Assembly: GCA_964187785.1 (NCBI GenBank) | Contig: OZ076420.1 | Coordinates: forward strand, 51,088,001-51,152,000 | Direction: 5' to 3' | DNA: 64,000 bases | Source of the DNA: Amphiscolops sp. MND2022 | Taxonomy: Eukaryota | Part shown: one piece after another, positions 16,265 through 54,647 of the stretch | Position numbering within the stretch: position 1 is the stretch's first letter | Layout of the letters: each line of letters starts with the position of its first letter | The notes under the pieces: generated by a model | The model's input: only the letters and a program-made list of their open reading frames with translations | Databases searched by the model: none | What the model was told of the DNA's origin: nothing | Translations under genes and position numbers: made by a program

Positions 16265-16867
16265 ATGGTTGTCATTATTGGCGCTAGTTCATTGTGCCGA
16301 ACTCTTGATTCTATCCCTTACAAAACTAAAAAACTATTTGTTCGCAGCTGCTTTTCGGTACCAGGGCTTAGCTTTAACGATAAAGCCATTAACCGTCATA
16401 AAATTCTTCAAAACCTTCTTACTCGAGGATCTCTTAGTAAAGTTAACAATATTATTATTTGGCACGACGTTATTAACAATTCAATTTCGCCCCATAGAAG
16501 CAACAACTATCAGCCAAGTTCGATTTACCAGCTTATAGAAAATCTCTTGCTGTTCAAGGACAGAATTAAAGCAATAGTTTACTGTCGCCGTCTGGGCACT
16601 GGGAACATCAAAAGGCGGTTGTTCAGTTCACAGATCATCATCATCGACGCTGTTAGAAAATTAATTTCTCATAAGAAAAGCAAAGACAGCACGATCTTGT
16701 CCGACTTGCGACAGGTGCATCCGTCAGCAGCGCTAGAATTCAAGCTCCTATCTGTAGTCTGGAATCACCGTAATCACGTACAGAGGTTCAAACCAGATAA
16801 AAAGATTAGGAAGAAACCGAATCAGAGGATAAGAAGGAAGCTCCGACAACTGAAAGTGTCTCAGTAG
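16265..16867 (+). CDS. SGNH-fold-like ORF0 immediately upstream of LINE ORF1 (200 aa from the ATG at 16265)
   Basis: Open frame with VVIIGASSL, SVPGLSF, IIIWHDVINNS and QVHPS in SGNH block order, and a basic C-terminal tail. It ends about 80 bp before ORF1 on the same strand. Confidence 0.6.
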   Translation: MVVIIGASSLCRTLDSIPYKTKKLFVRSCFSVPGLSFNDKAINRHKILQNLLTRGSLSKVNNIIIWHDVINNSISPHRSNNYQPSSIYQLIENLLLFKDRIKAIVYCRRLGTGNIKRRLFSSQIIIIDAVRKLISHKKSKDSTILSDLRQVHPSAALEFKLLSVVWNHRNHVQRFKPDKKIRKKPNQRIRRKLRQLKVSQ

Positions 16868-16949
16868 GTTAGTGATCTGTTTTTTTTTCTTGGTCTTCGA
16901 AAACCTTAGTTGGTTGGGAGAACTTGAGATTTGGCAGTGATCTGACATA

Positions 16950-21100: not shown

Positions 21101-21315
21101 TAGTCGATTTCGCTTGGAAAAATTGGCAGACGGAATCTCCGATGTGTCATTGTGGCAAAAGTGAAGAGACTACAGAACATTTCTTTCTGGCATGTGGACT
21201 ATACCAAGACATCAGACCTGAAGACATTGACTCACTGAATCTCCTTGACCCTGAAGATTGCAATACCATTGCCAACTACATCTCGCATTCAACGAAGTTA
21301 AAAGGAATCGTATAA
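18156..21315 (+). CDS. LINE ORF2 (APE endonuclease, RT, C-terminal zinc motif), I/Jockey-group-like, about 3 frameshifts
   Basis: LQINICGL, FLNETK, GDLNA, LNDGEPTF, SVIDL; QEGFR, IDLEKAFDSVW, GVPQGSVLSP, KFADD; CHCGKSEETTEHFFLAC. Confidence 0.9.
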
Positions 21316-21704: not shown

Positions 21705-22414
21705 TCGCTTTAAGGAAGCCTCTTTCGAAACAGGAATGACGTCTAAAACTTTAGACGCTAGTCTCAAAAAATGATTTATTTTAGACGTTATTCCCGTTTT
21801 GTATTTAGATGTTATTCCTCAGAAGTTCTTCCCGCTGCCACGTTTTTCAGACGTTTTTTGATAGTTTTTTGATATTTTAAACGTATATCAGTTTTAGACG
21901 TTATTCCCGTTTTTTTCAGACGTTATTCCCGTTCATTTCAGATTTAGATGTTATTCCTTTAGACGTTATTCCCGGTGGACTTTTAGACGTTATTCCTTAG
22001 ACGTTATTCCTGTTCCCCGTTGACATATTTATTCCTTGAGTTGGAATGGAGTTGGCTTAATTTTGTGGTCACTTGGCTTAAAATTTTTAAGCCAAATGAC
22101 TCGACGAAAAAATTAAGCCAAATGGTATTGTAACCTACCCTCACTGGATATCGGAAAATGCTTCCCCATAAGCAGTGCATCCGTCCAAAAGGAAAGGTAC
22201 CGTCCAAAAGGAACGGCCAAAAGGAAAGGTACCGTCCAAAAGGAACGGCCAAAAGGAAAGGTTTGATAGTGCCGTTTAGAATGTAATCCTGCCCTTTGGG
22301 ACAATGATTTGGTATAAATAGAGTTGATTTCTTATCATTTATTCATTATTAATTTAACCTTCATTCGAATCAGTCGTCTTTTGTTATTCGACCCCACAAA
22401 TTGGTGACCCCGAC

Positions 22415-23248
22415 GTGATGGAAGATCCGACACAATTGGAAGACTCTACCATTGCTTATAATCACACATCTAACGGAGGTAGCGGTGATCGCACAAACAA
22501 TGCTCAAGTGGGGAGAATAACAATCAAACCTCCAACTTTTTATAGAAGCAACCCGCAAGTCTGGTTCAGACAACTCGAGTCCCAATTTGCACTCGCAAAT
22601 ATCACCAGTTCCCAAACAAAGTTTCACCACGTCATGGGCGCATTACCAGAGGACGTCGCAATCAACCTCCCACTGGACGTTACTTCTTACGAATCTCTAA
22701 AGGAGCAGATAATTGGAATCTATCAAAAAAGTCGACAGGAGTTATTGGAGGAGGCCTTAGGTTCAATTTCCCTTGACGGCCAAAAACCGTCAGTCTGTTT
22801 CCTACGCATAAAACGCAAATTAGAAGATTGCCATTTAACCGTCGATGACCAATTTTTACGCCACAAATTCCTCCAAGCGTTACCCCCAACGACACGTGTT
22901 GCCCTGTCCGCACATCATAATTTGGCCTTGGACGATTTCGCTAAACTTGCAGATACGATATACCAGTATTCAACGTTCGATTACCACGTAGCAGCAGTAA
23001 GACCCGATCCTAAGCCCGAACATGATTCTGTTTCCCCGAACAGAAACTTTCAACACGATCCTAGACAGCAAAAGGGAGGGATGTTTCCTTTCAGTGCGGG
23101 GCAAAAACCAAAAATTTGCCGATTTCACGTCTTCTACGCAAATAATGCCAAGCGGTGTAAACCCTGGTGTAAGTGGCCTGGTCAGAAACCACAGTTGATT
23201 GATGCTTCATCACGACCAGCAACCCCAAACAACCCAGCGTCAAACTAG
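22415..23248 (+). CDS. gag: Gag with CHCC motif
   Basis: [28 protein letters not shown]; C-terminal [12 protein letters not shown] typical of the CsRN1 clade. pol overlaps in the -1 frame at ...TCAAACTAG. Confidence 0.9.
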
Positions 23249-23262
23249 GAACCCCTAGCGTA

Positions 23263-26200
23263 GTGGCAGCTTGCACTGGGGGTGATTTATTCATTGAGAT
23301 CGCTGCCTGTATCAATTCTAGCCAGCAAAAGTTTCTTATAGACACAGGATCAATGGTGTCCATTGTTAAACCCAATTTAATCCATCCAGTTACTATCCTG
23401 CCTTCCAACGCAGTTCTATCCACCATTAAAGGTGACGCGTTGAACGTTTACGGAAAAGTTACTATACCAATTGAAATCCCTTCCTTACGACGGTGCATCA
23501 GCCATACCTTTTTCGTCGCTGACGTGTCGTGTAATATTCTTGGTATTGATTTCTTGTCCACGAACAATTTCTCAATTGATTGCAAGAATGGCCGCCTCAA
23601 GGATAACACAACATTGTTGTCTACTGCAACTCAATTTAAAAAATGCAACCACGTCTCTGTGAACAAAGTTGAGACAGTGATACCTGATATCGGAAACGAC
23701 GAGCTGAAATCAATAATGACCAAAAATGCAGAAGTTTTCGGTGATGTTGATTTCAACAGCACAGCTCAACACCAAACGCTACATCGTATTGAACTGACGG
23801 GTAAGGGCCCGTATGGCAGCCCGAGGCGTTTGTGCCCCGAGAAATACAGGATCGCCAAACAGTGTTTCGATTCCATGATAGCAACAGGGATATGTCGTCC
23901 ATCATGCAGCCAATATGCCTCCCCATTGCATATGGTACCTAAAAAGGAACCTAACGATTGGAGGCCTTGTGGAGATTACCGACGATTAAATTCAGTCACT
24001 AAAAGGGATTGCTACCCCCTTCCACAACTATCGGATTTCAATCTTTATGGCAAAAAAGTTTTTAGTAAGTTGGACTTAGTAAAAGCATACCATCAGATAC
24101 CAGTACATCCCGATGATATAGAGAAAACTGCTGTGACAACACCGTTTGGTCTTTTTGAATTTCTACGAATGCCATTTGGTCTCCGAAATGCAGGACAAAC
24201 ATTCCAACGCTTCATGAACACAGTTTTCCAAGGATTAGATATGGTTTTCACCTTCGTGGACGACGTCCTAATTGCATCAGACGATGAAACGACTCACTTG
24301 AAAGACATCGAAACGGTATTGGAACGCCTGAAGCAATACGGACTGCGCTGCTCTATAAAGAAATGCGAATGGATGAAAAATGAGATCGAATTCCTCGGAT
24401 TTTTGATCACTGCTGAAGGTTTACAACCCAAAGCGGACAAAGTCGAAGCTATTCAACGATGGCCGCGTCCCACGAGTTACAAAAGTTTGCGAAGCATGAT
24501 GGGAATGTTCTCTTTTTATCGACAACATGTTCCCCAGTATGCAGAAATAGTCGAACCTCTCCAAACGTTACTCAATGATAGTCAGCCATCCCGTACTTCA
24601 AATTCGACTATCGACACACCATTGCGTTGGGAACCCTTCCACGATGACGCTTTGATATTATTGAAGAACAAACTTTCTGAACGTACCATGTTGCACTATT
24701 TGTCTCCAGATGGTACTCTCACTCTCACTACTGATGCTTCTGACAAAGCAATAGGCGGAGTTTTACACGACAACAGAACGGACGGGACAAACGTGCCACT
24801 AGCCTTCTTTTCACGAAAATTATCTGTCGCAGAACGCAATTATTCTGTGTTTGATAAAGAACTTTTAGCAATTTTTGCCGCAACACAGAAATTTCGACGA
24901 TTTATTGAAGGTCGTTACTGTGTCGTTTTTACCGACCACAAACCCATTGTTGCTTCCTTTCGAAAAACAACCGACCACTCCCCTCGACAATCCCGGCAGT
25001 TTTCGTTTTTGTCGGAATTTATTGACGATATTGTTCACATTGCTGGTGACAGCAATGTGGTAGCTGATTGTCTATCACGACCCGAAGAAGAAGAGAGTTG
25101 CGTACAACAACCGAAACTTATATCTGCTGTAACTTGTGACCCTTTCGATTTACAGGCAATCGCTGAAGCGCAAACACAGGAGTTTCAGGAGGAAATGTGC
25201 CAGGTGTACAGTCAAGGCACCAAAATTGTTACTATTCCACCAGACATAAAATTACTCTGCGATAAAACTCTCATTCCCCGTCCAATAGTTCCACCAGAGT
25301 TACGGAGAAAATTGTTCCTCAATTTTCACAACATGTCACATCCGAACTGGAAGGCAACTAATAAACTAATTTCAGCACGTTTCACCTGGCCGCATTTGGC
25401 TTCGGACGTGAAGGGTTGGTGCAAGGAATGTTTACATTGTCAGAAAAGCAAAGTTACACGACACACAATAACGCCTCCTGCACCAACCGCAGGTTATCCA
25501 GCCCGTTTCCAGCATTTACATTTGGACATAGTAGGTCCTCTGCCTGCAGTGTCGAATTGCCCGAATAGATATATTCTTTCCTTCATCGATCGATCAACAA
25601 ACTGGATAGAAGCTACTCCCATTAGTTCTATCACCGCAGAAGTCGTGGCTGAAACATTTATTTCTACTTGGTTTTCGCGGTTCGGAGTCCCACTCTACAT
25701 TACTACCGATCAAGGACGCCAGTTCGAATCTGATTTGTTCGCCGAATTATCCAAATTGCTTGGTTTTGCACGTCTTCGTACTACACCTTATCATCCCCAA
25801 GCCAATGGTAAAATCGAAAGGTACCATCGAACTTTAAAAGCTTCTTTAGCAGCCTCACCTTTACCGTGGACTCAAGCTTTACCGGTCGTTTTATTCAGTC
25901 ATCGAATTCTGCCCAATTCCATGGGAATATCCCCTTTTCAACTGGTAACCGGATCAGATGCTTTTGTTCCCACTATTTTTAAAGAAAAACAACGACAAAC
26001 ATTCACTCGTGATTACGTCTCTAAACTGGCCACGCATTTGCAGTTATTACAATTTACAACACCTTCATTGACTTCTCATTCCGGTTCCAAGCAATATGTT
26101 CCTCGGGACCTTCAGGAGTGCAGTCATGTTTGGCTACGAGTTGATCGTACCAGGCGTCCCTTGGAGGCGCCCTATAGTGGTCCCTTTCCTGTTCTGGAAC

Positions 26201-26511
26201 GCAATGATAAAACAATGTTGATACAATGCACGAACGGACCTACCCGAGTGAGTTTAACCAGAGTTAAACCTTGCTACCTTCCATCAGAGACACATTTCAA
26301 ACCAACTGTGCCAAAATTGTCAGAGGACAATGGGTCCTTTTGTTCTTGTGGGGGACCTTTTAACACCGATATGATCGGCTGCGACGGTCCTAATTGTGTC
26401 ATACAATGGTTTCATTTTTCGTGTGTAGGAGTTGACAAACCTCCTCAAGGCAAGTGGTTTTGCCCTACTTGCAGGGAACAACGAGTACAGAAAACCGTTT
26501 CATTCGCATGA
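23263..26511 (+). CDS. pol: Pol (PR-RT-RH-IN) ending in a PHD finger
   Basis: [49 protein letters not shown], then [45 protein letters not shown] (26338-26478). Confidence 0.95.
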
Positions 26512-26840
26512 TTTTTGTCAACACTCCGTTATTTTATGGGGGACCTCTGTAACCTACCCTCACTGGATATCGGAAAAAATATTTCAATTCCAATTTTAGT
26601 CACCTATTCTTTATTTGTTTTGGACAACACATTATGTTAAACGTATAATTCAAGCCGTTATATTGATGGGCGACAATGCATTGAGACAACTTATCATGAT
26701 TACGTAATTACGTAGTAGTATGATGACTCATATGAGTCATTGCAGAAGTCACGTGACCACACTTCAAAACGACACAAAGGATCGTTTTCAACCCATAGAA
26801 TCACTTCTCTTCAAAAAACAGCACCAAACAGTCGGCAGAA

Positions 26841-27770
26841 ATGCAAATCAGCTCAGACGAAATGTCCCTTCTGCAACTCTACAGGACCACCAAAATGCAG
26901 CTCGGAGGAATGTTACCAAACCTCGCCAATTTGACATTGATGTCTATTACGCCGCAGAATGGAATGATTGCTATTACACAGTCAACTGAGTTGTTCTCTC
27001 AAGTGCCAGTGGACAACGAGCAAATTGTTACCAATCCTGCACCTAGAACACTTCCCCGCAATCCGACACCACAGAAACAGCGTGAACACCACTTATCCAG
27101 CTCTTCGGATTCGAGCAGCAGTTCGTCCGAGACCGATGATGAACCACCACCTAAAAGGCCGCAGAAGAAAAAAGACGGCAAGAAAGAACGGTCCTCGACA
27201 GCCAAAGAATTGGCACGACCCCCAGCTAACGAGTGGCACAACAACCTGGTACCGCTGAATAAGCTGGCCAGCCTGTCCACATCGCAGATAAGCAAATTAG
27301 ACGATGTCAACGAGGTCGACGATCAAATCCGTGACCTCACGCCGGAGATTGATGACATCAACCTTCCCTTTCAAGGTGAAGGTTTAGCCAAAAAAGTGCC
27401 TCCAGGAGCCAAATTTGGTGATTGGGTTATTTCACGAAAGAGTGGCATGACAGGTTTTGAGATCAACAATATGTGCCGAGCCATGGGACGTTTCGCTGGT
27501 TTGAAGTACGACCGGATTGAAGCAAACGACAAGCCAAATTACATGACCCGAGCTACTTATGCTACAGTGTTGGTTCACCGTCCGTGGTTGGTGGCGCAAA
27601 TAATGGACATCCCGAGGTCAACATTGCGGAAAAGAGTCAAGGTTTTTGCGAAAAAAGTGATGGACCTGGCCAAGCAGACAACACTTGCTAATTTGATGCT
27701 TCGGTTGCGACTAACTGTAAACGACACCGATTACTTAGCTTCACTGATATCGGAAAATGCTTCCCCATAA
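26841..27770 (+). CDS. Orphan 309-aa ORF inserted in the 3' LTR
   Basis: Open frame with a Ser/Asp tract, an NLS-like PPPKRPQKKK and a globular-looking C-terminal half. The stop codon is supplied by LTR sequence. No family recognised. Confidence 0.6.
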   Translation: MQISSDEMSLLQLYRTTKMQLGGMLPNLANLTLMSITPQNGMIAITQSTELFSQVPVDNEQIVTNPAPRTLPRNPTPQKQREHHLSSSSDSSSSSSETDDEPPPKRPQKKKDGKKERSSTAKELARPPANEWHNNLVPLNKLASLSTSQISKLDDVNEVDDQIRDLTPEIDDINLPFQGEGLAKKVPPGAKFGDWVISRKSGMTGFEINNMCRAMGRFAGLKYDRIEANDKPNYMTRATYATVLVHRPWLVAQIMDIPRSTLRKRVKVFAKKVMDLAKQTTLANLMLRLRLTVNDTDYLASLISENASP

Positions 27771-28789
27771 GCAGTGCATCCGTCCAAAAGGAAAGGTACC
27801 GTCCAAAAGGAACGGCCAAAAGGAAAGGTACCGTCCAAAAGGAACGGCCAAAAGGAAAGGTTTGATAGTGCCGTTTAGAATGTAATCCTGCCCTTTGGGA
27901 CAATGATTTGGTATAAATAGAGTTGATTTCTTATCATTTATTCATTATTAATTTAACCTTCATTCGAATCAGTCGTCTTTTGTTATTCGACCCCACAGTA
28001 TTAAGCCAAGTGACTGGTAACCCTACTAAAGACGCAGAAGCTCTGAGGTTATGACTAACAGACTTTCTACTTTTATTTTATTTACACAGAACTGATAAAA
28101 CGTGCCTAAAACATATTTGTTAGATTAACCCGCATTTTAGGGGTTGTTCGGATTCTATATAATTTATTTTTCGTTTCGGAAAAATCAACTCAGTTATCTA
28201 CTTTTTGAAAACAGTGTCGACTCCGATTGTCAGTAAAAAACTACAAAGCGTTTGTAGACCCACAGTCTGTGGGCATGTCGAGGCATGTCCATCGTCGACG
28301 TATGCCCAATCAGGAACGTCGCACGCACTCAAGTTTTGGATTTTACATCGTGGAAGTTCGGCCCATTTGAAGAAGTGTTAAAAAACGGTAAACAACGCCA
28401 GCAATAATCGATAGTTTCCACTGACCGGGACAGTTAGCATGAAAACAGGTTTACCACAGTATCGGTTGTTTTTCTATTTTAGGATGTTTCTCTGGAGGCA
28501 CCGGGTCGACTGATTTTATATTTGTATCGGTTACCGGCCAACACAACAGGTATCGGTTACCGGATATGACACAACAATCGTCTTTAATAGATGAAATTTA
28601 AACAAACCGGGAACGGCATAAGTCGGCGCCTCGCTTGAGGCTCAAAAGTTCTGCAAAGTATTGTCTTCCACAGTAACCGAAAGCCCGAAAGGGACCGAAC
28701 TGGTGCGCCAAAATGGGGGCTTCAGGCTTTTTCAATATGCATTCTGTTGCAAAATATTTGAAAAAATTGAAAGGCGGCACTTTGGAGAC

Positions 28790-29637: not shown

Positions 29638-32600
29638 ATGGTTATTCCAACGGCGAATCAAGCAAATAAACCGGTTTCAGACCAGAATGTTAATCCTGAG
29701 AAACAAACCTTTTCTTCAGTCTACGTTGCAGCGGGTGATAATGAAAACCTGAATGCTGCAAATGTACATCATGACGAAAACTACGGCAACACCAGAGCTG
29801 GAGATGCAAACGTGCCCCACCGCCTGTGTATGTTCCGGTCAAAGCGGCGAATGGGAGGAAGAAACGAAGCGGATGGTGTCTCGCTGGTACTTTTGGAGCT
29901 GGTATGCTCGTTGCCCTGATTATCGTAGCCCTCACGGTGGTGTTAGTCCAAGTTTTCTGCGGCAACAAGAAGAGTAAGTTGCGTTTTCTTTTGGCCCGAT
30001 AATTCGAGTTCTCATTTTAAAAGCAGATTGAAACGTTGTTTCTGAATCTCATGGATTTCCCATCCGTTTAGCCAACTTTTTAGCCCCACTATTACAGCAG
30101 CCAGGCCTAGTTACAAAAGCTGGACACCTACTCCAGCATTGTTCGATCTATAATCACTCAACTCAATTAATTCAAGTTTTTTTTACTTTTTGACTATCTT
30201 CTTTTTGACTTAGGGTTGAAAAATCATCCTGTTATGAGTTTGTTACCTTATTGACCTTCCATAGGTCTCATATTCTGAAATAATCATGGCAGAATTCATT
30301 TAAACTGCATTGCATAATTGGGTTCGACTGGTTTTTACGGGATGAAGCTACTATTGTCTCTCTTAAGAGAAGGGATAAATTCGTCTAATATCATGTTACG
30401 TTAAGTTTAATAGTTTTTAGTGTTTTCTACCAAATATTTTAATGTCAAAAGCTTCGGAGTATCGTCATGTCTTAGTTTTATTGTGACTTAGGTTGTCTTT
30501 TATTGTGACTTAGGTTGTCTTTCGTTAAAAGTTTAGGTTGTCTTTCGTTCTTCGTTAAAAGTTGAAGCCAAGTATTTTTTTCTGTAAAACTTTCAAAATT
30601 GAACATGATTATCAGATAATGACCGCTGATTGAAAATGATACTTGTAACATAGCTGAAACATTCCGTTGTTGAGGACAAATGAACTGATTGAAAGAACTC
30701 TTAAATATTTGACCTTAAAACTATTTTACCTATGACAGAACTTTAACCTTTTAACTATTTAATCAGCATCTATCTTTAAACAAATAACTATAATAATATC
30801 TATTAATACAAAAACATCAGTGCTGACAATAACTAGAGAATTGCATGGTTGTGTTTTCAAATAAGAAGATTGAGAACTAATCTGAGGATTGTGATCCATG
30901 TTCCGAAGACTTGGCTGCTCTCCATTCCTGCATCCAGCCGCCAGCCATAAATACTCATCTTAAAAGTAGAGATATAAGTTGGTTACAGGAGCAAAACAAT
31001 CCTCACTATGCAATACAGAGAAGAACTCTCCTTTTTGTGTTGAAAAGCTCACACGAGACCCCCGACCAACCACCCGCGGTGTTCCAGCCACATCATCCAC
31101 GACCAGCACCAGATCCACGAGGCTGTAATAACTGAAACAAACACGGCACGGCAGAAACTGGAAACTACAGAAATCAAAGATGAATTTTGGTGACTTTCTC
31201 CACTTGGGCGAATTTTGATGCTCCGATATCTGTATTCAATTTCATGATGACTTCAAAGTGCCAGTACGAATACAGTCGGTGAGTTTGATTCAATTCTGAA
31301 GCAGTAAAGTGATATAGTGTAAATTTCGAATTTCATGAGTGCTTCAACTGTTTTCATTTTCAATTGAACTGTGTCTCACAGCTGTTAATCTTTTAGAAAC
31401 TCAACTGTGAAATTCTGCAAACTTTTTACTTTTTTCCAAAGGCAAATTTCCTTTTTTCACTGCAAATTGTAGTTGTTGCAAAAACGCTTTAAATTTGATC
31501 TCAAATCTTTCTTGTTTCGCCTTGAAAGTTTCATATTCGTTGTTCAGTTTTCGAAGTTCAAACTACACGTCAGTGTTCGACTGCATTTTACAAACTTTAA
31601 TCGACAAATTTTTAATTTTTTCTTCACTACAATCTCAGTTTTTATTCGTCACTCTCTATTTTACACTTAACTTTAAAATCATGGCTGCTTTACCTCAACT
31701 CTCGCTAACACCGTACTCGGGTTTAGAAAAGGAAAACTTTCGTGAATTTGAACATTTGTTACGAAGTATCTTAGCAGTAGCTGCGGTACCGCAGGCACAA
31801 CAAGCCAACTTTTTACAACTTCATCTTAGAGACGCTGCGCTCCGCTATTTTCAAACACTACCGGTAGCAACACGTGCGGACTTAGATCTCTCTTTGACAG
31901 CTCTTCGTGATCACTTTTGTAATCCAAGACTTCAGGAATTGCATGTTCTTAAATTGGAAAACTTAAAATTCGATCCGAAAACAGACAATCCAGAGAATTT
32001 TTTAGTCACGTTACAAACGAAAGCACTTAAAGCTTATCCCGATCCAAATCCACCTGCTGTAGCACCAATTGACGGTGCCGCGCCGGACGCAGCAGTCGAA
32101 CAAACACGATTTGATTCTGAAACCGCCAGAGGAGCGGAAATAATTCATTCAGCGCAACAAACGCGCTCCGCTCAGATTCGGAGACAATTTATAAAAAATA
32201 TGCCGGGCTGGCTTCGAGCGAAACTTTTGGAACAACCGGAAAATACAACGGTTGAAGATTTGTGTATATTCGCTCGGAAACAACTTTCGATCTATAACCT
32301 TTGTAAGGTTGAAGATTCGGTTATGGATGCTTTCAGTGAAGTGCGCCCTTCAGTATCTGATACTTTAGTTACAGCTCTTACAAAATTGAGCCATAGTCAA
32401 GAAACTATGGACAATCGACTGAACGAAATGTCCAAAAAACTAGAAGAGCAAGCTACGAATTTTACCACTCAGTTACAAAATCAGCAAAACCAAAATAATT
32501 CGCAACGCGGCTCTCAAAACTATCGTGGCCAAGGCTATCGCGGAAATCGAGGAAATTACCGTGGTCGGTATCGCGGCAATAACCGTGGAAACCGAGGTCG

Positions 32601-35600
32601 AGGTTACCAAGGTCGAGGACGACCTTGGCAGAACAATTACGGCAGAAATTACAATCAGTCAAATCAAAATTACCAAAATTCAAATTTTAATCAGAATCAA
32701 AATAGTCAGCAACAATGGTCAAATCATAATCAGGAAAACTTTCAACAAGGAAATTCCAATCAAGGTTCATCGCAAACTACATTTGAAGTTTTTACTCCGG
32801 ATCCGCATTACATGCCTTATACACAACAATCAACACATACTTGCTATAATTGCGGATATCCGAATCATCTAGCAAAAGATTGTACTGCGCAAGGTAACCC
32901 GCCACAACGAGGAGCTCAAATGCCGTTCAATCAAAATCAAAAAAACTAAAAACGCAGCACAAGATTCCACCGCCTAATTCTCTACATGAAAACCAGTCGA
33001 ATGAGCCACACACATGTAACATAGAATTAAAAGAGCCAGATATATGCGCTGTTTTGCCTCTTGAAGGTGAAAATCTTTCCTACGTTAAATGAAATTTTCT
33101 CCGAACATTCGCCGAAGAGCCCTCATTGATACAGGCGCCTGCGCTAATGCAATGCCTCAAAATTTATACGACGAATTATGTTTGAATCATCCCGAATTAA
33201 TTAAAAATGAAATCCCAAATTTTACGTCAGTTCGCATGGCTTCAGGACAACGTGTGTCAGTTGACAATCAGGTGAATCTCCCATTCTGTATCGGAATTCA
33301 TTCCTTTACGGATAGTTTTCTCGTGCTACCAAAAATGAATAGTGTAATTTTGGGGAATTCATTCTTCAAAAAACAAAATATTACAATCGACCCAAAAAAC
33401 AACTTACTGAAACTGCCTGATTTTACGGTTCAACTCAATGAAATGAAACCGGACGCTGGAACAAAACGACAATTTGTAAAAAAAATGAAAAATATCCCTA
33501 TTCTATTGAGCAAAAAAGTCAATATTGGACCGCAGCAACAAGTCCTCCTTGAATGCTATTTGGATGAATACACTGACCAGTTAGCTAACTGTACAGGACT
33601 AGTAATTCCCAATAAAGATTTGGAGGAAAAGGCCAATATCGCATTAACTTCGTCTCTGAGCAAGATGGATAATGACAATAAAATTTACACATCAGCGATC
33701 AATTTGAGTGATTCCCAGATTACGCTAAATAGCAAAAAACAAATTGCACATTTCGAAATTTTGAGCGAGTCACAGGCTGATTATCTCCTTGAAATAGATC
33801 CACAATTATTGGCACTCGCAAAAATGAGAAAACCTGACGATTTTGAAAATGAACTCAATCAGCTAATTCAAGATATACACTTTCAAAAATTTGACACGGA
33901 CAATGGTCGACCGTCCCCAGATTACTCAAAACTTTGGTTTCCGACTCCCGAAACATGTACAGATCTTTCAAATTTGTCACCGTTGCAACGTGAAATTTAC
34001 GACCAATTTTGCAACTTCAACGTTTTGAAAAAATAAATCCAAAATCTAACTCACACGATAGACAAGAATTTTTGAAAAAATTTACGTGGGATACATGTGT
34101 TTTGAGCGCTGATGAAAAGTCAAAATTGGAGGATTTCCTTGTTGAATATCATGACGTGTTTGCAAAACATCGCTTTGATGTTGGGTATAACACAGAATTG
34201 AAGATCAAATTAACGCCTGCTCATCAACTTCCGGTATACGTTCAAGGTCCACCAGCACCGATTCCTTTGCGTGATGAAATTTTAGTTGAATTGGAGTTAT
34301 TACAATATTTTAACATCATAACTACGTTGTCACACTCCAAATATTCTAGTCCGATATTTGTACATCGCAAACCATCTGGCAAGCTTCGCATACTTATCGA
34401 TCTCAGAAGAGTCAATCACCTCCTACGCCATGATTACTTAAATAGCAATTTCCCCATTTCAAATATGACAGATGCGACAAACCATTTTGCGGGAAAGAAG
34501 TTATTTTGTAAACTTGATTGTTCGCAAGCATACCATTGCGTTCAAATGGCAGATGACCTTTCGGTACAATTGCTGGCATTTAATTTCGCTTCGCGTACAT
34601 TTGCTTATAATTGTTTAGCCCAAGGCCTGAACAAATCCGTCACCGGATTTAGTTCGTTCGTTAAACACTACTTAGATAAATGTCTTGCTGCCAATGTTTG
34701 TACTCAATGCATGGACGACATTGCCATGGGAGTAAACAATTTTGATGAGATGATTCCTGCTTTAACAAAAATTTTTGATTGCCTGCGTGCATCAGGATTA
34801 AAATTGTCTGCTCATAAATGTGAATTTGGGACGACCAAGATTGATTATTTGGGAAGCACCATAACACCTAAAGGAATCTCACCAGAAGCTGACAAAATAA
34901 ACAAATTTCTCGAAAAAATCAGAATGCCAGAAACTGTTAAACAAGTGAAAAGATTGATTGGATTTGTCCAATTTTTTCGTTCGTTCATGCCCAACTTGGG
35001 CCAAAAATTGCTACCATTTTACAAACTTTTGCGAAAAGATGTAGAATTTAAAACCACGAAAGAACATAGCGAAGCACTAGATTCATTGAAAACCGATTTA
35101 CGAAATGCTACCAACTCTACTTTGCGATTGGCAAAACCTGGTCTCCAATACGTACTTCTTTGTGACGCTAGTTACCATGGCACAGGCTTTGTTCTCATGA
35201 TTGAGGACTACTTGTTAGATCAACAAGGCAAAGAGAAGAAAGTTTACGCGCCGGTCTCCTTTGGATCTCGATCGTTTGGTCCGACGCAATTGAAATTTTC
35301 GGTTTACTATAAAGAATTTCTTGCTCTCTATTTCGCCTTAGATCATTTTGCACATTTTATATGGGGCGCAACTAAACCTGTGCTAGTCTTAACCGATAAC
35401 CGTAGTCTCACGCAATTTTTCCAATCTAAAAGTATTCATCCATCGTTATGGAACTGTTTGGATAGAGTTTTGTCTTTCAACATTCTCCTTGCTCATATTC
35501 CTGGTAAAGCGAATTCGGCCGCAGATTTTTTATCACGAATGCAAACAGACCCTACTCTAACTCTGTCTCTCAAATTAACTGATCGGATACCTATTAAAGA

Positions 35601-38600
35601 GATCGAAATAGAAACCGAAGCGAAATCTCCTGATGTCGCTTTATCTAATATTTCGGATAGAGCACATTTTCCGGAATCTGTTGACCATCAGGCAGACGAT
35701 CGCCTCATTTCACAATTGAAAGAATTTGGCCTCTACGAAGTTTTTACAGAGAACAACCGAAGCGCAGACTATCCCGTCTCTTGACATCACTGGCTTTTAC
35801 TCCTTTTGTCAAATAAATCAAATAAACTTAGTCTCGTCAGGAGAATTCAGCGACATTCTTGATGATTTGCCCAATCGGTCAGAGCCAATAGACCTCGCTC
35901 TAGTACAAAATCAAGACGAGATCATTCGTGAAGTACTGCAATGGAAAGACCGAGGCTCGCCGGATGTGTCGCCAAATTTACCGATAGCTTTGCGAAAATA
36001 TCGTAAACAATTTCCACGCCTAATCATTGAGGACAAAGTTCTTTATCGACTTTATTATGACGATCAAGGAAAAGTCCAACACAAACAGTTCTGTGTCCCT
36101 AAATCCCTATGGCGCGAAGTAATTTACCGTTTGCATAACTCGCCGACGGCAGGCCATATGGGAATCAATAAAACGGTTGAAGAATTTAGAAAACGTTTTT
36201 ATTTTCCGAATTTCACAGAATACCTAACATCAACAATTCAAAATTGTTTGCAATGCTTGCAACTGAAACGTGTACCAAGCAAAAATCTGAAAACTCCGTT
36301 GCAACCGCTCTCCTCGTTAAAATCCTACCCGGGTGAAATGCTTCAAGTTGACCTTGTCGGTCCATTACAGTCTCCGCTCTACCGTTATGTACTTACGGGA
36401 ATTGATGTCTTTACAAAATATCTTTTCGCAGTCCCACTTACTAATGGGAGATCAGAAACTGTTGCACGAGAACTTGCGTCGATATTTTTCCGTCATAGTT
36501 ATCTTCCCAAAACAATTTTATCGGACTTGGGTACTACTTTTGTGAGTGACTTAATGCATGAACTAACTAAACTTTTGGAAATAAAATTGGAACATGCCAG
36601 TCTAAAACACCCTCAACCTGTAGGTGTTGTGGAGCGCTCGCATAGCGCCCTCAAACGAATTTTGAAGTTGAACACCACAGAGCAGTGGAATGACTGGTAC
36701 AAATACGTGCAACTTGCTGCATTTATTCATGATACTTTTTATCATTTTGCAATTGGAACAAGCCCAACCGCATTGTTTCATGGTCGCGAACCTTTGAAAC
36801 CCTTAGATCTTAGGTTTAATAACAATTCGCTTGAACGTACGCAACCGACTACAGAATATGTGCTTGCATTGCAGGATGCCATGCTACAAAAATTTTCCGC
36901 TACAAAAAGTAAAATGACTGAAATGTATAACAGATACCGAGCTTATTATGATTACAAGGCTGAGGCACAACCTCTCAAGCAGTTCTCGTTTTGCCTTCTT
37001 TTAAATCCAAAGCTCATGACGCAGTCTGATTTTTCGAGTAAGTTCCTTCCTATTTGGTTACCATTGTATCGAGTCGAGCAAGTTTTAACGAATTCAAATT
37101 ACATCATTCGAAAGGTAGGTACAAACTACACTCAATGCGTACATCGCATTCGTCTCCGACCGGTTGTACCGCAATATCAAGTTGACGACTTACCGCAAAT
37201 TGACCCGGATAAATTTCAACGCGATCCTATGCTTGGGCGATTCCGTGGAGAACCAGCTATTTTCGATGAAAGCATTCCAACTCTTCTGTTACCTCCCTCA
37301 GAGGAAACTAGTGTCGCTCACAACGAAGAAAAGCCTCCACCGGTTACGGTTTCGCTTAGTTTTCCTATTGCACCAGCCGTTATCCCGATGGGACCAGCTC
37401 CAGGGCCAGCAGTTCCACCCCTACCAGCTGCAGCAGCAGCTCCAGCAATTCCCGCACTGCCAGCCCAGGACGAAGAACAACAACCATCGCTTGTGCCATA
37501 TCTTGACGATGAATCCACAGATTCTCCGTCCTCTCCACGAGCGACTTCAGATGACGACCAGGCACGCTACGCAGGTCCATCTACACCCACCTCGGCCGAG
37601 CAAGCATCACGTACCGTCCGTCCGAAACTTCCGACTACCTCATCTCGCACTAATCGCACTTTGAATTTCGATGAGAATCGTGAAACAGTACCAGTCTTTA
37701 TTGGACGTGGACCTAAATCATATGGACAACCGTCATCTAGATCAGCGCTGACTCAGGTTCCAGGTACAAGCTTCCTGAAGGCAGATAAGCGCACACTCTT
37801 GCTAGACTCTTGTCAACGAACTCGACCTCCTTCTGATGCAAGTCCACGGGTCAACCCAACTACCACGCAACAGCTGACACCGCAATCTCCTCAGGAGTAT
37901 CTACAGCACCAAAAGGAAGTAAAAGCACGCTATAATTTCCGTAATTTGAAGAAAAGACTATCCTTATCCAATGTTTTAAACTCTATTTCCTCTGACAGTC
38001 ATCCGAACTTTTGCTTTTCTTCTTCGAATATCCTAGACTCTACAGAGTCTATAGCTCACTGTGTTTCCGCTGACTTTCATATGAAACGCGGTCTAGCATC
38101 TGCCATCGCTTACCGCCACCCTGCGCTTCGCCAACTCGAATTTAATACTCCAAAACGTTTACCACCGGGATCACTTGTCTCTTTTTTCGACCGCTTGAAT
38201 CAACGTTATATCTATAATTTAGTGACCAAAAAACGATTCTTTCATAAACCTCACTACGAAACACTTCAATTGAGTTTGATGGCCCTTCGTCAGCATTTAG
38301 AGCGCCATAAAATTCGGGCACTTAGCATCCCGAGACTCGGAAGTGGTCTTGACAAATTACATTGGCCAACTGTTTTTTCGATTTTATATCGTATTTTTTC
38401 AAAGTCTCCTATTACAATTATAATCATTCAGCCCCCCCGTTAACAGTGGAGTTTTCTTGGGATTCTGCGGTAACTTACAGCCCGCTTGACGGTGATCGTG
38501 ACTATTCTTTACAGTACCATATCAAAAAAATCATTAAAAATTCGAAAATTGACCTCTTCACAGGTAAAATTTCCAACATCAAAAAGTCGGATTGACCCTG

Positions 38601-41600
38601 GATTTGCGGTAACCAGGAATTTTTTACCTTGCTCTTTCTAGTTTTGACCCTACTTTTGACAAATAAAGAAAAATTTTTTTGGACCCTCAATGGCGCCACT
38701 TTTGCCATAGCCCTATTTCTGAACATTTCTATGATAGTAAGTTCCAAAAAACTACAGTCTTTGCATACTCTTTGATGCCTTTGCTTGGTTTGGCTTTTAA
38801 ACACTTTTATTGATTCCATACTTCTTTGCCTATTCAAATTTCCATGATGATTCATGATTACATTAGTGTAATGATTGAGTTATGAAATATTCAATGCCAG
38901 TATTTTCTGGCTCGCTTTGAGGGAACACCATCCTTTTCCTCACCCCCCTCATACATTCGATCATTGCTAAAAGAATTCTGCTTCAATTCTTAACTCCAGT
39001 TACTACCTTCCAGTGAAAATCCACAAGTTGCTAATTACTTACCTTTCGATTGGCCACTCAATCAACGGTTCACAATGAAATTTGCGATCTTTTTCACTGT
39101 GAATAATGTGTAATAAGAACACCGCCCGATTCCCAGGGGTTTTGTTGCAGGCGGGATATCGTATCCACCCTTTCCCCCCTTGATACCGCCAATAGATCAA
39201 TACGTCCCATCCGAGAAATTGAGCAGTTCCCAGAATCTGGCAAGACAAACATCAAAATAAGCATCCCACAACAAAAAAAAACAAAAAAAAGAAAGTACAA
39301 AAACATTTTAGAGCATCTCTGGCTCGTGTCTCACTTACCCAGGGCTCGCTGATATCCGCATTCGACTTGCACATTTTATCTAGTTCCCATATGTTTGGAT
39401 CATACCCCAGGCATTCTATGGACGTTTTTTCGAACTCCTCCGATTTCATATGCATCCCAATACTTGTGCGGATTCGTTTCAGAGCGGCACCGTCCTTTTT
39501 CTTATCTGCAATGTATGCACTTTGCCAACGTTTCTGGGATAGTTTCAAAAAAAAACTCAATGTTACCACTTTTCCGTCCGGTTAACAGCAAGAAGACACT
39601 TGATACCCAACATTCCCCCCCTTGGGCAAGAATGGCTCTACAAGAGGCCTCTTCTGGCTCGCCCAGACCCACCATTCGCAATCCGCTGTAATCATCCCGG
39701 ATTGTCGTGAACTTTATTGCCAGCTTTGCACACATTTGCTTTCTGGCACTTTCACTTACGCTGGTAGCTCTTTCCCAACGATGTCTTTCTTGCATTGCCC
39801 AGAAACATTCTGGACAATCGTGCAAGTACCTACAGCAATCATTATGTCATCATTTTTCCCGTAGTAATAGTTTTTTAGACATCTGACTCTTACATATTTA
39901 TGGCTCGGTCACATCCGCCTGTAAAAGGTGGTAATACGTAACCAGCCTCCAATAATGCCTGTCTCAACAATTTTATGCCCCGTGCATGCTTTTCTTTTCT
40001 TTTATGTACAGGCTCCAATACAGTGTACATGTCGGGAATTGTAGGTACTTTTTGCCCATTCCACAACAGTCCATTTCCGTCAATGGTAAAGAATTTTAGT
40101 CTCTATCCCCATGTATCCCTCAGTGCTTTTGTGCGCAATATTGTCTCATCAAATTTTTCAGTTGCTTTCATTTCCATAATAGCATCAAACATTGTTTGTT
40201 CCATCTTGATCTCTGAAAAAAATTCTTTGCTTGCAAATTTTACTCTGCCCTTAGATATTTTCCATTTATCTTTTGGCTTTTTTCGACAGCTTCCTTACTT
40301 ATTTTTCTTTTCAATTGCGTTTGTCTTGTCCAAAACTGGAGTTCAAGTTGCGATATTTGACACGATTTCCTTCTTTTACTATCTTTGCCTTCGATCCTAG
40401 ATTGTTTCATGTCTGGTAATTTATTCACAATTAAAGCTCTTTTTTCTCTTAACGTTTTATTGGCCTAGACTTCCTTCTGACTAATGGTGGTTGACTAATT
40501 CGGGGCGACTGCTCAAATTCAATTATAACTGCAAATTGTTAACACAGTGAAATTTAAACAAGCACATTCCTAGCAGTAAACGAAACCTAGCAAATTCTAT
40601 CAGTAACTGCAATTTTGTCTTTCGGTACAGTATTGTCATTTCACTGTAATGCTGTTTAGAATGACTGACTTTTCGGCACTTTTTTTACTTTCAATTGCCC
40701 TCCGCCTTGCTCTTGATCTTCTTCTTCTTCCGCTGCTTCTCTTTTACAACAGCGTAGTATCACAAGCCGGATTTTTTGAGCAGGAAACTTCCACCAGCAG
40801 CACAGGGCACTGGCCACTATGATAAAAGCAAAAATTATGACTTTTAACACACTTGTTTCCGAATTAGCCGTTTCGTTCACTGACTCATTGCAAATTAAAG
40901 GCTTTTGTGACACCCACACTTTCCCCCACTTGCACTTTCGATGGCTGTTCCATTCGTACAACAGTGAATTTTGTGGCCTCGCCACACTTGAATTTCACAC
41001 GCCTGCGCCACAGTATAACACAACCACACAGTGGCAATGATGAGCAATTTCATTTTACTAAAAAACTCGGACAAACGCTTGACAACTGAATAAACATTCC
41101 GCTCATTTCAGGGTCATTTTCAATAGTCCGAAATCGAACATCTGAGCTTTCACTCGCAGGTCGAACAACCAGTACCGTAAACATGACTTGACAATACAAA
41201 CTTTAACATCTCGAATTTTGTAAATATCAAAAGGGCACCGGATGTTGACAAAAATTTCGAATAACAAATCTTGTGATCTCTCAACTATTCACAGCTCCGC
41301 CCCCAAAATACCCAATGTGCCATTCTTGCATTTGCGATCCTTTGAACTAGTCGATAGTATTCTTTCGACAATTTTCTCTTTTACGCTACCTTTCAAAAAA
41401 AACAAAAGGGAAAAACAGCCCACGAAGAAAAACGGATCGATGTTGGTTTTGTTCCTACTGGTTTTCTTCACCCCTGCTTCAGTTCGAATTGAGTGTCTTT
41501 CTAATTTAGAAGCCTCCAATAACCCGAACGAAATCCAAGAAAAGGGCGTTCTGTTCCATGAACGCAGTAAAATCTTGCTTGCGGAGAAATTTATAAAAAT

Positions 41601-44600
41601 TGAATTTTTAGTTCCCTTCCCGACTTACGTCTTCGCACTTAGACCGGATATTGTGGCCTTAATGGCCAAACTCGCGTCGATGTGGGAACTTCCATCTATC
41701 TGTTTTTTGTCCCTTGGATTTTTCAAGTCACTTTTCAACAAATTCAACGCCGTTCAATGTCACCTGGATGTTACAACAAATAGAAACTGAAATCCACACT
41801 GCGGAGCTCGAAGTTGCCCTCCTACGTAATGAAACAGCAATGTTTCTCTCCCCTCCTCAACAGCAGCGGAATACTCGCCACCGACGTGGATCCCAAGTGG
41901 GACTAGCGGCTCTTGCTGCAGTCGGCCTTTTTGGAGGAGGAGTGGCTCTTGGTAGTTCTGACTCTTGTGGACTACAAGGCATTTTTGGTTCCTGTCAGGA
42001 CGATGCGAAGGCAAATGCCGAAAATATTCGCAAAGTATCAGACTTCCAGGACGTTTTAACCCAGTATGTAACCGAATTTACAACATCTACGGACAAAAAA
42101 TTTTTATGGTTGAAAATGAATTGGCGGCCCTTCACGACATCCAAAGGGAACTTGTTGATACGCAGAACAAAAACTGGGCACTTATTCAACAACAGTTTGA
42201 TGTTTTTGAGCATAATTTTCACGTACTTCGGGACTGCAACCAGTTACTATTTTCAAATCAGCAGTTGAACTTTAACTTCGACACTCTTTCGTCACTTCTA
42301 GCCATGATACATGCAAGTGTTAAGAGCTATCGCGCGGCCTTATTTGCATTCCGCATGAACATCTTGAATTCGATTCCCGTTATACTTAGAGGTCATTTGC
42401 CTATGTCCTTAGTACCAACGGAATCGTTATTGGCAATCCTTAGAAGTGTTGCGATACAACAGACGACGGCTGAGGATAGACTATCTCTCGCTATCCCAAT
42501 GTCAGATCTGCTGTCTTACTTTGACTCTAAGCTTTTAGCAGATGCTATAACTGTTACCGATGGTCTTTTGATGACCCTCAACATCCCGCTAGCATCTAAG
42601 CAAACCGTTTTCACTGTCTATGAAGCAAAATTAGTTCCGATGCCGTATCCAGACGATCCCCAGTCGGCTCTTACATGGAACATCGAAGCTCCATATTTAG
42701 CTTTGTCGGAGGATCACATGGAGTCATCTGTCCTCTCTGCAGAACAGTTTGAGCATTGTCTCGGCTCATCTCGTTACCGAATCTGTTCAGAATCTGTTCC
42801 AACAGAGATAGGACACTCGTCTTGTTTAGCCACCTTGTATTTCAGTACAGCATCGGAGGCTCTTGCAGTATGTGATACTACCATTGTACAACTGCCTACC
42901 ATAGAACAAGCAACAAACTTAGGCTATGGCATTTGGTTAATTCAATCCGCTCACGCAGTTACCCTTCGTGAAGTTTCATCTTCATCTGTTCAGGGCTCTT
43001 CTTTTCGCGGATGCCGCATATGTCTCATCACTTTAGCATGTGGAATGCAAATCATGACTGACAACATCAAAATCCGATCTGATCTATCAAGTTGCGCTCA
43101 CATTCCGCCAATAAAATTGCAAGTTTCTCTGCCTAATCCTATCGCTTCATTGGTTATGGAAGTCCCCCCTTTGGACGAATTACCGTTCTACACATCGAAA
43201 GCTGAAGCAGGAGTGAAGTTATTGAAGGAGGTAAAGCTACAGTTAGCAAAAGGACCAAAGAATCGTGAAGTCAAACATATGATCGACATTGCCAGACCAT
43301 ATGCATCAGAAATGAAACTCTTGAAACCAGCCTTAACGAAAGAATTTAATCAATATGTTCCGTTCCGAATTTCATTCATGCTGACATTAACTGTGTTCAT
43401 TGTATCGACAGCTTTGCACTTGATCTTTATGTACATTTATCATCGCTACAATCTGGCATCGAAATTGTTTCCATCCCTACTTGATAAAAATAAAAAAAGA
43501 GTGCGAGCTAAACCCATGATGAAATTGGAAACAACTGATTCTCATGCTGAGGATAAATTTCACAAAAAATTTGGACGAATATATCATCTTTCACGTTCAC
43601 AATCGAAAAGAAATCTAAACGAACCATCTACATCTGCTAATTGCGATCAAGTGCTCATGCAAAGTCCACTAGACCCCAGAATGGCCAGTTCAATGTTTGA
43701 ATACGAGACGACTGCATTCAAACAATGCCAACCCATTCAAAATCTTCAATCATCAATCAAAAAACATCCGAGTAACTGTCAAGTTACAATTAACCAAAAG
43801 GTTCCCGATACCGGAGACTTTGAAGCAGACCAAGCCGACACCATTGCTTGACTTCACGAACCTTCGGTTCAATCATTCATTCATCATTGAGATTGATCAA
43901 AACAAATCCTTTCATAAATTTTCGTCTGCAGTAATATGTAAACTATAAATGCAGTAATCTTTGGCTCTACAATATTCAACTGGACTGGATGAAATATACA
44001 ACTTTATCACAACATGAATCTGGGACTTGTGCTGCTCTCCAAAACACTTCTCTTTGGGCTCTTTCAATGGAATTATTGGAAGTAGACTACTCAACTTGGC
44101 AATTTCAGCTTCTAATCATCACTACACTACTCCTCAGACTGTATGATGGCTCTTTTTCAGACGCCGGAAGTTTTTCGATGAGAGGAAGTGTAACATAGCT
44201 GAAACATTCCGTTGTTGAGGACAAATGAACTGATTGAAAGAACTCTTAAATATTTGACCTTAAAACTATTTTACCTATGACAGAACGTTAACCTTTTAAC
44301 TATTTAATCAGCATCTATCTTTAAACAAATAACTATAATAATATCTATTAATACAAAAACATCAGTGCTGACAATAACTAGAGAATTGCATGGTTGTGTT
44401 TTCAAATAAGAAGATTGAGAACTAATCTGAGGATTGTGATCCATGTTCCGAAGACTTGGCTGCTCTCCATTCCTGCATCCAGCCGCCAGCCATAAATACT
44501 CATCTTAAAAGTAGAGATATAAGTATACTCAAACTTTATTTCATGCTTTGACGTTGATACAATATTCGTTTATATCAAATTGTTTTCTTGAACTCCTTCA

Positions 44601-52836: not shown

Positions 52837-54647
52837 ATTTCTAATTACAAAAATACTAAATAAATGGTTGGCGTTACACTAGTATTTACAAAATCATTTC
52901 ACCGTGTTTACCTAGTTAGTTTGTTCCTTATAAAAAGTCCTAATACTGTCTCTCCACCCAACAGAGCAGTGACTTCAAAAAACTAAAAATTGCTGGTTTA
53001 AATTATCACCGGCTAAAATCATTTTTCATTTGCGGCAGATCTAAAGCATTTTCAATATGAAAGTGTAAAAGCTTGCATTTTAGTCTGTATATTTTAATAC
53101 TAATTTTCTGATGTACATAAATGCTCTCTGATATATTTTGTGAAGCTACTTTGCTCAAAATTGGAACAAATCTTTCAAATTAACTGAAGTGAAGTAAGTA
53201 GTTGTTTTGCTGCTGTATTTAACAAAAGATGGAATAGATACTGAGATGCCTAAAAAATTTTACTTAGTACTATTGTATGTTCACGTGATATAATTCAACA
53301 TATTTCCTTTCAATACTTTTCCCCTTTTCAGATAACTCATTTACATACACTGCCTTGCACTACTCACGCAACTCCCTTTGTTCGCACGTACACGCAAGGC
53401 ATTTCCTTTCTAGTATTACACGGAGTAAGCTTTGAGACTTTCTTACTCATTTACCATCAATAATAGAACAGCCACCTGAAAGTACTTTGCAAAATGCTAC
53501 ATAAGCTGAACTGACTAATACTGATAACAACTGAACAGTCACTTGAAAGGGAAAGTGATGCAAACAGGAAAAAGTAAATAGTAAAATTCATCCATGCGTG
53601 CAACAAACTGGTGCGACCAGTGAGGCACCCTTTCTCTCTCTTAGTAGAGAAGTAAATGAGTTATCTGTTAGAATCCCTACTCTCAGAAGTTAGGGTTAAC
53701 TACCTATTTCTCTTAACATTACTTATGATCCTCTTTTTTCTCCTATTGCCCCAGTATGTGGCTTCTTTGGTCTATATAAATCATAGAACTGCTAGAAAAT
53801 ACTCCAATAGAATCTCTCCAGCTTAATAGCCTTCAAAGAGACTGTGCACTACTCAACTTAGTCCTCTTAATCCCCAAAAACGGTTAGAGTTAATCTACTT
53901 CTTCGGAAATGCAAGACTACATTCGGTCCCAAAACAAGAATGAAAATGTTTTCTAACACGGAACTTAAACCTACAGTTGGGAAATTCACTCTTGTCCAGA
54001 CGGACACATATTAAGTAAAAGCCCGCCTAGGTCTCCTCGGAGGCTGATTGAAGGCCGTGAGCCCAGTGGGTGTCCCGGAACCTGTGTAGCATCCCAAGAG
54101 GGAAACCTAGTATTCTAGTGATAGTACCCAAGTGCTTGCATGATAGTGATCTTGGCCCCGCGCACTTAATCCTGAGGACGAGAGTGACTCCCTCTATTTG
54201 TTTATTGTATTACCTCTACAAAGGCCATTGTAAGGCTAGACTAGCGAACTGAGTACCTTTTGGGACCGACTGTACTCTCCACATATATATATATATATAT
54301 ATTTTGGGTTAAATCGGAGGAGTGGTATACCCCGAACTGCCCTTTCCTTTACTCATATAAATTTAGCGGGATTTGTAAGTATCCCCTAAAAATTTGGGAT
54401 TTGAGTATTAAACCCGGAGGACTAACGTAAGCTGAGAGGAGAGATCAAAAAATTTTTTTTTGCATACTATTGAGTATATGCAAAGCCAGACCTGCCTAGC
54501 GCTCATCATCTTTAGAACTCTTGCAAGAGCGTGTTTTACCTTAGTCATTTGCGGTCATTTACAGAGACCTGGAGTATCCTACCTAATCGAATCTTTAATT
54601 TATTATTCGTTGCTAAAATTTCTCTCTCTAATAATTTCAACAGCTCA

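Follow-up and report, generated by a model that had tools for sequence, protein, structure and literature searches.

The genome of Amphiscolops sp. MND2022 harbors a lineage of Ty3/gypsy (Metaviridae) long terminal repeat (LTR) retrotransposons that carries, besides gag, pol, and a virus-type env, an accessory island of predicted enzymes. One copy lies at 30644-44524 of the 64,000-nucleotide stretch of contig OZ076420.1 analyzed here (assembly GCA_964187785.1, positions 51,088,001 to 51,152,000 of the forward strand; hereafter, the window). Between pol and env, this lineage carries on the opposite strand a cassette composed of a small membrane-protein gene and a spliced gene for a predicted deubiquitinase (the HHCC-OTU gene), and its pol ends in a putative ADP-ribose hydrolase. 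In sister families, a JmjC-type open reading frame (ORF) stands in the slot of the HHCC-OTU gene. These features point to a modular accessory island of predicted erasers, which would act on ubiquitin, ADP-ribose, and methyl marks.

A DNA search of the genome with the cassette region gave 46 matches, from which 20 sibling loci were fetched; together with the window copy they form a census of 21 copies, whose frames were scored by pattern. Two LTRs were found within the stretch in 15 of the 21 copies, 14 of them with a matching 5-bp target-site duplication (TSD), and the LTR pairs were 96.7-100% identical (14 copies). Open frames were seen for env in 5 copies, for the membrane gene in 11, and for all four HHCC-OTU exons in 7. 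A sibling pol frame of 1838 aa was seen, and a query of the genome with the macrodomain showed that 14 of 150 scored matches (997 candidates) end frames of at least 1800 aa. The family is a young, multi-copy, recently mobile Ty3/gypsy provirus. Much of what a first-pass annotation of the window had proposed is retained: an LTR-bounded, TSD-flanked element with gag, a macrodomain at the C-terminus of pol, an OTU domain, and a class I fusion env. Sibling copies share the layout, with open frames in some and ratios of nonsynonymous to synonymous substitution (dN/dS) below 1. The dN/dS values and the kept residues described below support an env-bearing gypsy lineage with conserved, selected macrodomain and OTU genes.

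The HHCC-OTU gene and the macrodomain

The antisense cassette had been annotated as a glycoprotein, an HHCC-like segment, and a spliced OTU-like domain. All three are present, but the latter two are not separate: they constitute one gene with four coding exons. Its introns (61-104 nt, and one of 599 nt) have fixed positions and phases across copies, and GT-AG borders were observed in 36 of the 37 introns with both ends located. Exons 1-2 encode a His-His-Cys-Cys series in register with the integrase N-terminal zinc finger (a weak match, HHalign 26%), which runs after a linker of about 60 aa into the OTU domain encoded by exons 2-4; neither a DDE core nor GPY/F is present. Among the open exons, the catalytic Cys was retained in 42/45, CxxC in 42/45, HCEP in 39/41, and the His pair in 32/33. 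The acidic residue at His+2 is also kept, and a glutamate occupies this position in P0228 and P0215 as well. The median dN/dS values of exons 1-4 were 0.10, 0.12, 0.10, and 0.03 (15-38 unsaturated pairs of 528-990 per exon), indicating that the gene is under purifying selection.

The assignment of the OTU domain rests on profile searches. When a profile built from natural rows was run against 1.8 billion proteins, 105 were found, with E values of 2e-6 to 9e-4. Eleven distant matches were scanned; seven had Pfam OTU, including Helitron proteins and one Ginger1-like integrase-OTU protein, and the other four had no Pfam match. The cassette OTU aligned with four distant OTU proteins at HHalign 94%. 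No OTU or H2C2 match was obtained when 19 cassette-exon proteins were submitted singly to a Pfam scan, and profile searches of the PDB with A3, A4, and A7 gave chance-level matches only, with no OTU for A3. The ESM Atlas gave no usable match to the OTU read-through piece. A search for longer homologues with A1 returned four read-through pieces from genomic sequence but no full-length protein of a spliced gene, and that with A4 found none, which is weak evidence. On the basis of the profile matches, the domain is predicted to be a deubiquitinase of the Helitron/Ginger type with its Cys and His kept.

The macrodomain at the end of pol matched human OARD1/TARG1 (C6orf130) with an E value of 2e-22, and the positions of the catalytic Lys and Asp (K84/D125) align. 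Six PDB matches were found at E<=0.001, of which five were human TARG1, one was an Appr-1-p processing protein, and none was named viral. The TARG1 pattern TKx(30,35)Px[IL]GxGxD, taken from PMC6397177, was present in 24 of 29 open macrodomain copies, and the median dN/dS was 0.18. These results assign the domain to the TARG1/OARD1 class, as a putative ADP-ribose hydrolase. The viral Mac1 class (corona/toga/hepe) was rejected on the basis of these PDB matches; the TARG1 clade is described as separate from viral Mac1 (PMC6397177). A role in DNA damage has been reported for TARG1 (PMC4695847), which differs from the present domain in that the latter is fused to a retroelement integrase and known from sequence.

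The macrodomain was absent from one OTU subfamily (12 of 32 OTU loci, with reverse transcriptase (RT) about 50% identical), in which pol ended in a Pro/Ser tail in the loci inspected. Ten distant macrodomain loci were also sampled: five had env with an antisense membrane gene and a JmjC-type ORF, three had env without the island, and two had gag, protease, and the macrodomain. The three without the island (L075, L080, and L082) represent a distant gypsy family with an F-type env, in which RT is about 27% identical and TARG1 is placed between RNase H and integrase. The last two, L078 (4067-6574, minus strand) and L079, contain gag-protease-TARG1 ORFs of 836-845 aa with no RT nearby and no env, and are possibly non-autonomous LTR elements.

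The island as a fixed slot with exchangeable contents

The cassette exons were antisense to pol or env in all 32 sampled loci, down to an RT identity of about 50%, and env was found beside them in 30 of the 32. In every one of the 20 siblings the HHCC-OTU gene is retained in whole or in part, two of them having internal cassette deletions, and exon 2 has at least 150 matches in the genome. A nested insertion would be expected to be missing from siblings or to have terminal inverted repeats (TIRs) of its own. Neither was seen: the cassette is present in siblings, and the edges of the three gypsy cassettes searched showed only short, chance-like TIR pairs.

The contents of the slot are far more divergent than the elements around it. 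In 13 copies whose integrase cores are 92-100% identical, exon 2 occurs in at least six alleles that are 47-76% identical. Synonymous sites were saturated in the cassette (pS 0.72-1.0 in most exon comparisons), compared with an integrase pS of 0.00-0.39 in the same copies, and those of env were unsaturated in pairs with a saturated cassette. DNA identity is lowered over one block that starts at about 38.45-38.65 kb and ends at about 40.57-40.94 kb, between the pol stop and the 5' part of the membrane gene. Such old alleles on young backbones suggest recombination, which may occur between co-packaged RNAs. Tandem duplications of the macrodomain/cassette region were also observed inside the copies L041, L046, and L071.

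Exchange seems to extend to the type of enzyme. In the five distant loci with env and macrodomain mentioned above, a small membrane gene related to the present one precedes an antisense JmjC-type ORF, which takes the OTU slot. JmjC was supported in three loci, above the Pfam cut-off in L074 and just below it in L073 and L081. In these three, the H-x-D/E...H residues are present and the closest relatives are PHF2/PHF8. The membrane gene of L073 aligned with that of the OTU family at HHalign 67%. In a quick tree of 42 integrases, drawn like the other integrase tree from sequences within the genome, JmjC grouped with OTU plus macrodomain with a support of 85. The JmjC-like ORFs of the sister families are of two distinct types, and the genome contains 140 JmjC-like matches, many of which are ORFs of about 293 aa that occur pairwise, about 7 kb from each other, in a repeat context.

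A homologue of the HHCC-OTU gene was found in a second LTR superfamily. A Pfam OTU search of the genome gave nine matches, and the four fetched were two BEL/Pao elements (L084 and L086) and two Helitron-like ORFs with an OTU domain (L083, 1-3948, minus strand, and L085, on a short contig). The BEL/Pao elements have an intronless antisense ORF, tail-to-tail after pol, with 82 matches in the genome, and the same layout was seen in all six further loci (L090-L095); no env was found in these six stretches with two queries. The profile of this ORF matched exons 1-2 of the gypsy gene at HHalign 95.8% over 173 columns and the OTU part more weakly (39%), and its best PDB matches were OTUD5, OTUD1, and OTUD3 (E 0.04-0.1). 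One BEL homologue matched Integrase_H2C2 below the cut-off (E 0.0012), and a Y-P motif is present in the BEL homologues but not in the gypsy alleles. Since the gene occurs in BEL/Pao elements in which no env was found, it appears not to be tied to cell entry.

The membrane gene lies head-to-head with env and is common to all island types. Its product has a predicted signal peptide, a four-Cys beta ectodomain with a near-invariant N-G-T sequon, a transmembrane (TM) helix, and a Cys-rich basic tail; in the distant subfamily, neither the sequon nor a clear signal peptide is seen. With a dN/dS of 0.37 (10 of 171 pairs), it is the most variable gene. No family or fold match was obtained by profile, PDB, ESM Atlas, or fold searches: the ESM Atlas gave leads only (<=0.80), and the fold searches of the model matched long helices only and were uninformative on the ectodomain. 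The env gene was modeled from an open-frame sibling; in the window copy it is in three frames. The ectodomain model (78 homologues, pLDDT 75.7) resembles the fusion (F) proteins of respiratory syncytial virus, Nipah virus, and Hendra virus (best E 1.5e-7), and also matches viral glycoproteins including paramyxo/pneumovirus F and baculovirus F. PF12259 was matched on env homologues, and env is conserved (dN/dS 0.06). The modeled F fold, the signal and fusion peptides, the furin site, and the TM segment identify this gene as an F-type (class I) env.

Possible roles and known relatives

We propose, with moderate confidence, that the enzymes of the island and of the integrase remove marks set by the host on the chromatin of the element itself or on its integration complex, and that the element thereby avoids silencing and degradation. 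An action on chromatin and integration is more likely than one on innate signaling because all three enzyme types (TARG1, JmjC, and OTU) are erasers with nuclear or transposon relatives and none of them appears tied to env. TARG1, at the position of the chromodomain in chromoviruses, would ride with the integrase and strip ADP-ribose at the integration gap, and OTU would strip ubiquitin from histones or element proteins. The membrane protein would most likely act jointly with env, either on the surface of the cell or on the particle; receptor interference is one example. The introns may persist because the gene lies on the strand opposite to the genomic RNA and would hence not be spliced before reverse transcription. 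A wider and more tentative proposal is that two LTR superfamilies take their antisense chromatin erasers (deubiquitinase and demethylase, in addition to the ADP-ribose hydrolase borne by the integrase) from a common pool that recombines. This would be an anti-silencing island of an animal, comparable to the anti-defense islands of phages, and its alleles would be kept by an arms race.

Several observations weigh against the chromatin proposal. The Cys loop of the OTU domain is G-G-x-C instead of D-G-N-C, and the Trp-Gly loop also departs from its usual form; the activity could hence be weak or different. HHCC aligns only weakly with the N-terminal domain of integrase (HHalign 26% and 8%), and the dN/dS values come from few, non-independent pairs. 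Conservation of antisense AATAAA signals was not observed, as they accompany 4 of 18 and 8 of 17 stops. The JmjC-like ORF of L076/L077 has no Pfam match and is only weakly similar to that of L074 (E 0.001), and a careful integrase tree (14 rows) does not order OTU and JmjC (approximately unbiased test, p 0.30). Chromatin and signaling substrates, moreover, are indistinguishable from sequence.

Nidovirus nsp3 combines Mac1 with a deubiquitinating protease, and the first-pass annotation had understood the two enzymes of the element likewise, as a kit that counters innate antiviral signaling (PARP, ubiquitin) in cell-to-cell infection. A de-ADP-ribosylase-type and a deubiquitinase-type domain do occur here in one genome. 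The conservation of the F-type env, open in 5 of the 21 copies, is in line with such a role, the divergent cassette alleles fit an arms race, and ADP-ribosylation is known to be countered by viral macrodomains (PMC6397177). We nevertheless consider this role unlikely, and the nidovirus parallel is not upheld: the macrodomain is of a different clade, the OTU domain is of the transposon type, and the two are encoded on opposite strands. Nor is the pairing obligatory, since the macrodomain is missing from 12 of 32 OTU loci, JmjC replaces OTU in the sister families, and the OTU gene also resides in BEL/Pao elements with no env found; in L078 and L079 the macrodomain, in turn, occurs in gag-protease ORFs without RT or env.

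We give still less credence to a role in self-regulation or exclusion, in which the membrane protein would block the entry of related particles, the integrase-like HHCC-OTU protein would temper the integration of its own family or of competitors, and the alleles would be compatibility types. An HHCC-type domain without a DDE core suits a dominant-negative role, many alleles are found on one backbone, and the membrane gene, the one that varies most, is present in all island types and faces env head-to-head. This role leaves the kept Cys and His of OTU and the swap to JmjC unexplained, and the membrane alleles vary while the env ectodomain is 90-98% identical. That the cassette is a mere passenger of no benefit, the remnant of a Ginger or Helitron element nested in the provirus, as its closest distant OTU relatives (Ginger1-like and Helitron proteins), the introns of Ginger1 genes (PMC2836005), and the deletions in 2 of 20 siblings might suggest, is very improbable and largely refuted by purifying selection (dN/dS far below 1), given also the absence of edge TIRs and a DDE core, the position and orientation fixed in 32 of 32 loci, and the kept splice sites (36 of 37) and catalytic residues.

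The domain order suggests where the HHCC-OTU gene came from. Ginger1 transposases consist of YPYY, H2C2, DDE, GPY/F, and OTU and have introns (PMC2836005). As in these, the HHCC-type N-terminus of the cassette gene precedes a C-terminal OTU, which belongs to the same subfamily, and the introns are GT-AG; the gene differs in lacking the DDE core, GPY/F, and TIRs, and in being a constant antisense component of LTR elements. It may derive from a Ginger1-type transposase through loss of the DDE core.

F-type env genes are known to be widespread in gypsy elements, the 'ancient errantiviruses' of Chary and Hayashi (PMC13524379). The present element resembles these in its gag-pol-env order, LTRs and primer-binding site (PBS), F-type env (signal and fusion peptides, furin site, TM segment), and many near-identical copies, and differs in its pol-env gap of about 2.9-3.6 kb, antisense genes, TARG1, and length of about 14 kb. 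The main text of that paper mentions no macrodomain, OTU, antisense gene, or dUTPase; its supplements may list such fusions. Elements with more than 1 kb between pol and env, or longer than 10 kb in total, did not pass the first filter of that study, and surveys with such a 1-kb limit could therefore overlook elements of this kind. Teleost epsilon-like endogenous retroviruses (ERVs) with macro-domain ORFs (Basta et al. 2009, as cited in PMC4977317) are likewise env-bearing retroelements with a captured macrodomain. They belong to Retroviridae, and the account in PMC4977317 mentions no OTU/JmjC island in them. Extra ORFs between pol and env have been described in LTR elements (PMC6431247), as have cytosine methylases (PMC6338049), AlkB in an orchid gypsy element (PMC9289625), and the capture of chromatin domains (bioRxiv 2021.11.30.470311, PMC6338049). 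These elements share with the present one accessory enzymes for epigenetic marks or pol-env ORFs. Here, by contrast, the genes lie on the antisense strand and one of them is spliced; alleles and types of enzyme replace one another in a single slot, and gypsy and BEL/Pao have a homologue in common.

Each part thus has a precedent (F-env gypsy elements, OTU in Ginger and Helitron, macrodomains in fish ERVs, and pol-env ORFs), and the combination is apparently unreported. No spliced antisense OTU gene, OTU/JmjC swap slot, or integrase-TARG1 fusion in gypsy elements was found in the literature searched, which did not extend to Repbase/Dfam and most subscription journals. To our knowledge, animal LTR retrotransposons are usually regarded as having no complex accessory genes. 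The present lineage is an env-bearing gypsy lineage with a retrovirus-like accessory region comprising a spliced antisense gene, exchangeable enzymes, and many alleles. If ubiquitin, ADP-ribose, and methyl marks are indeed erased, these proteins are candidates for anti-silencing factors encoded by animal transposons; each predicted enzyme is small, and a standard assay exists for it.

The window copy and its surroundings

The LTRs, TSD, PBS, and polypurine tract (Table 1) identify the window element as Ty3/gypsy, and a domain scan of pol gave the gypsy order of protease (PR), RT, RNase H, and integrase. The gag frame ends at a slippery-type site, A-AAA-AAC, where a -1 frameshift into pol may occur. 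The dUTPase-like stretch between PR and RT (about 33506-33751) is weak, with a Pfam E value of 0.0024, below the cut-off.

Table 1. Features of the window element, and JmjC-type ORFs of the sister families.
Feature	Position	Strand	Basis
TSD ATACT, 5 bp (left)	30639..30643	+	sequence
5' LTR, 336 bp	30644..30979	+	99.7% identical to 3' LTR
PBS	30980..30991	+	sequence
gag with CCHC zinc knuckle (zf-CCHC)	31681..32949	+	ORF and domain match
pol: PR, dUTPase-like stretch, RT, RNase H, integrase, Pro/Ser-rich linker, macrodomain	32950..38443	+	
TARG1/OARD1-class macrodomain, pol C-terminus	37994..38443	+	E 2e-22
HHCC-OTU exon 4 (OTU strands, His of HCEP, stop)	39039..39236	-	
HHCC-OTU exon 3 (OTU helices)	39339..39505	-	
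HHCC-OTU exon 2 (CxxC, linker, OTU catalytic Cys loop)	39567..39829	-	
HHCC-OTU exon 1 (N-terminal helices, two His)	39894..40204	-	
Small type I membrane protein, ~130 aa	40656..41053	-	
F-type class I env: signal peptide, fusion peptide, heptads, TM	41440..43851	+	
env RHRR furin-type site	41876-41887	+	
Polypurine tract	44177..44188	+	
3' LTR, 336 bp	44189..44524	+	
TSD ATACT (right)	44525..44529	+	
JmjC-type ORFs in pol-env slot	L073:6845-7744; L074:2131-3000; L081; L076:6813-7958; L077	L073 -; L074 +; L076 -	

The window copy itself is not intact. Its pol is split over several frames with breaks near 33.1, 34.0, and 35.7 kb, its env breaks near 41.7 and 42.1 kb, the membrane gene has a frameshift near 40.9 kb, and exon 1 of the HHCC-OTU gene contains an in-frame stop at 40105-40103. 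Five of the 14 private indels of this copy are located at runs of at least five identical bases, versus a background of 8%, and some of them may be sequencing or assembly errors.

The primer may be a tRNA with a Leu-like 3' end. The T-arm/acceptor motif complementary to the PBS occurs 947 times genome-wide (control, 0), and ARAGORN called a tRNA gene in none of three loci. A dense array of PBS-complementary tRNA-like 3' ends, spaced at about 300 bp, was observed on contig C8 at about 35.59-35.64 Mb.

Three further elements were noticed in the window. A second gypsy element with 252-bp repeats occupies 22147-27997 and has an unidentified 323-aa ORF (26799-27770) after pol. A broken LINE with an APE endonuclease and RT is located at 16094-21315, and a third gypsy element, at 54516-61600, has an open pol of 1846 aa.

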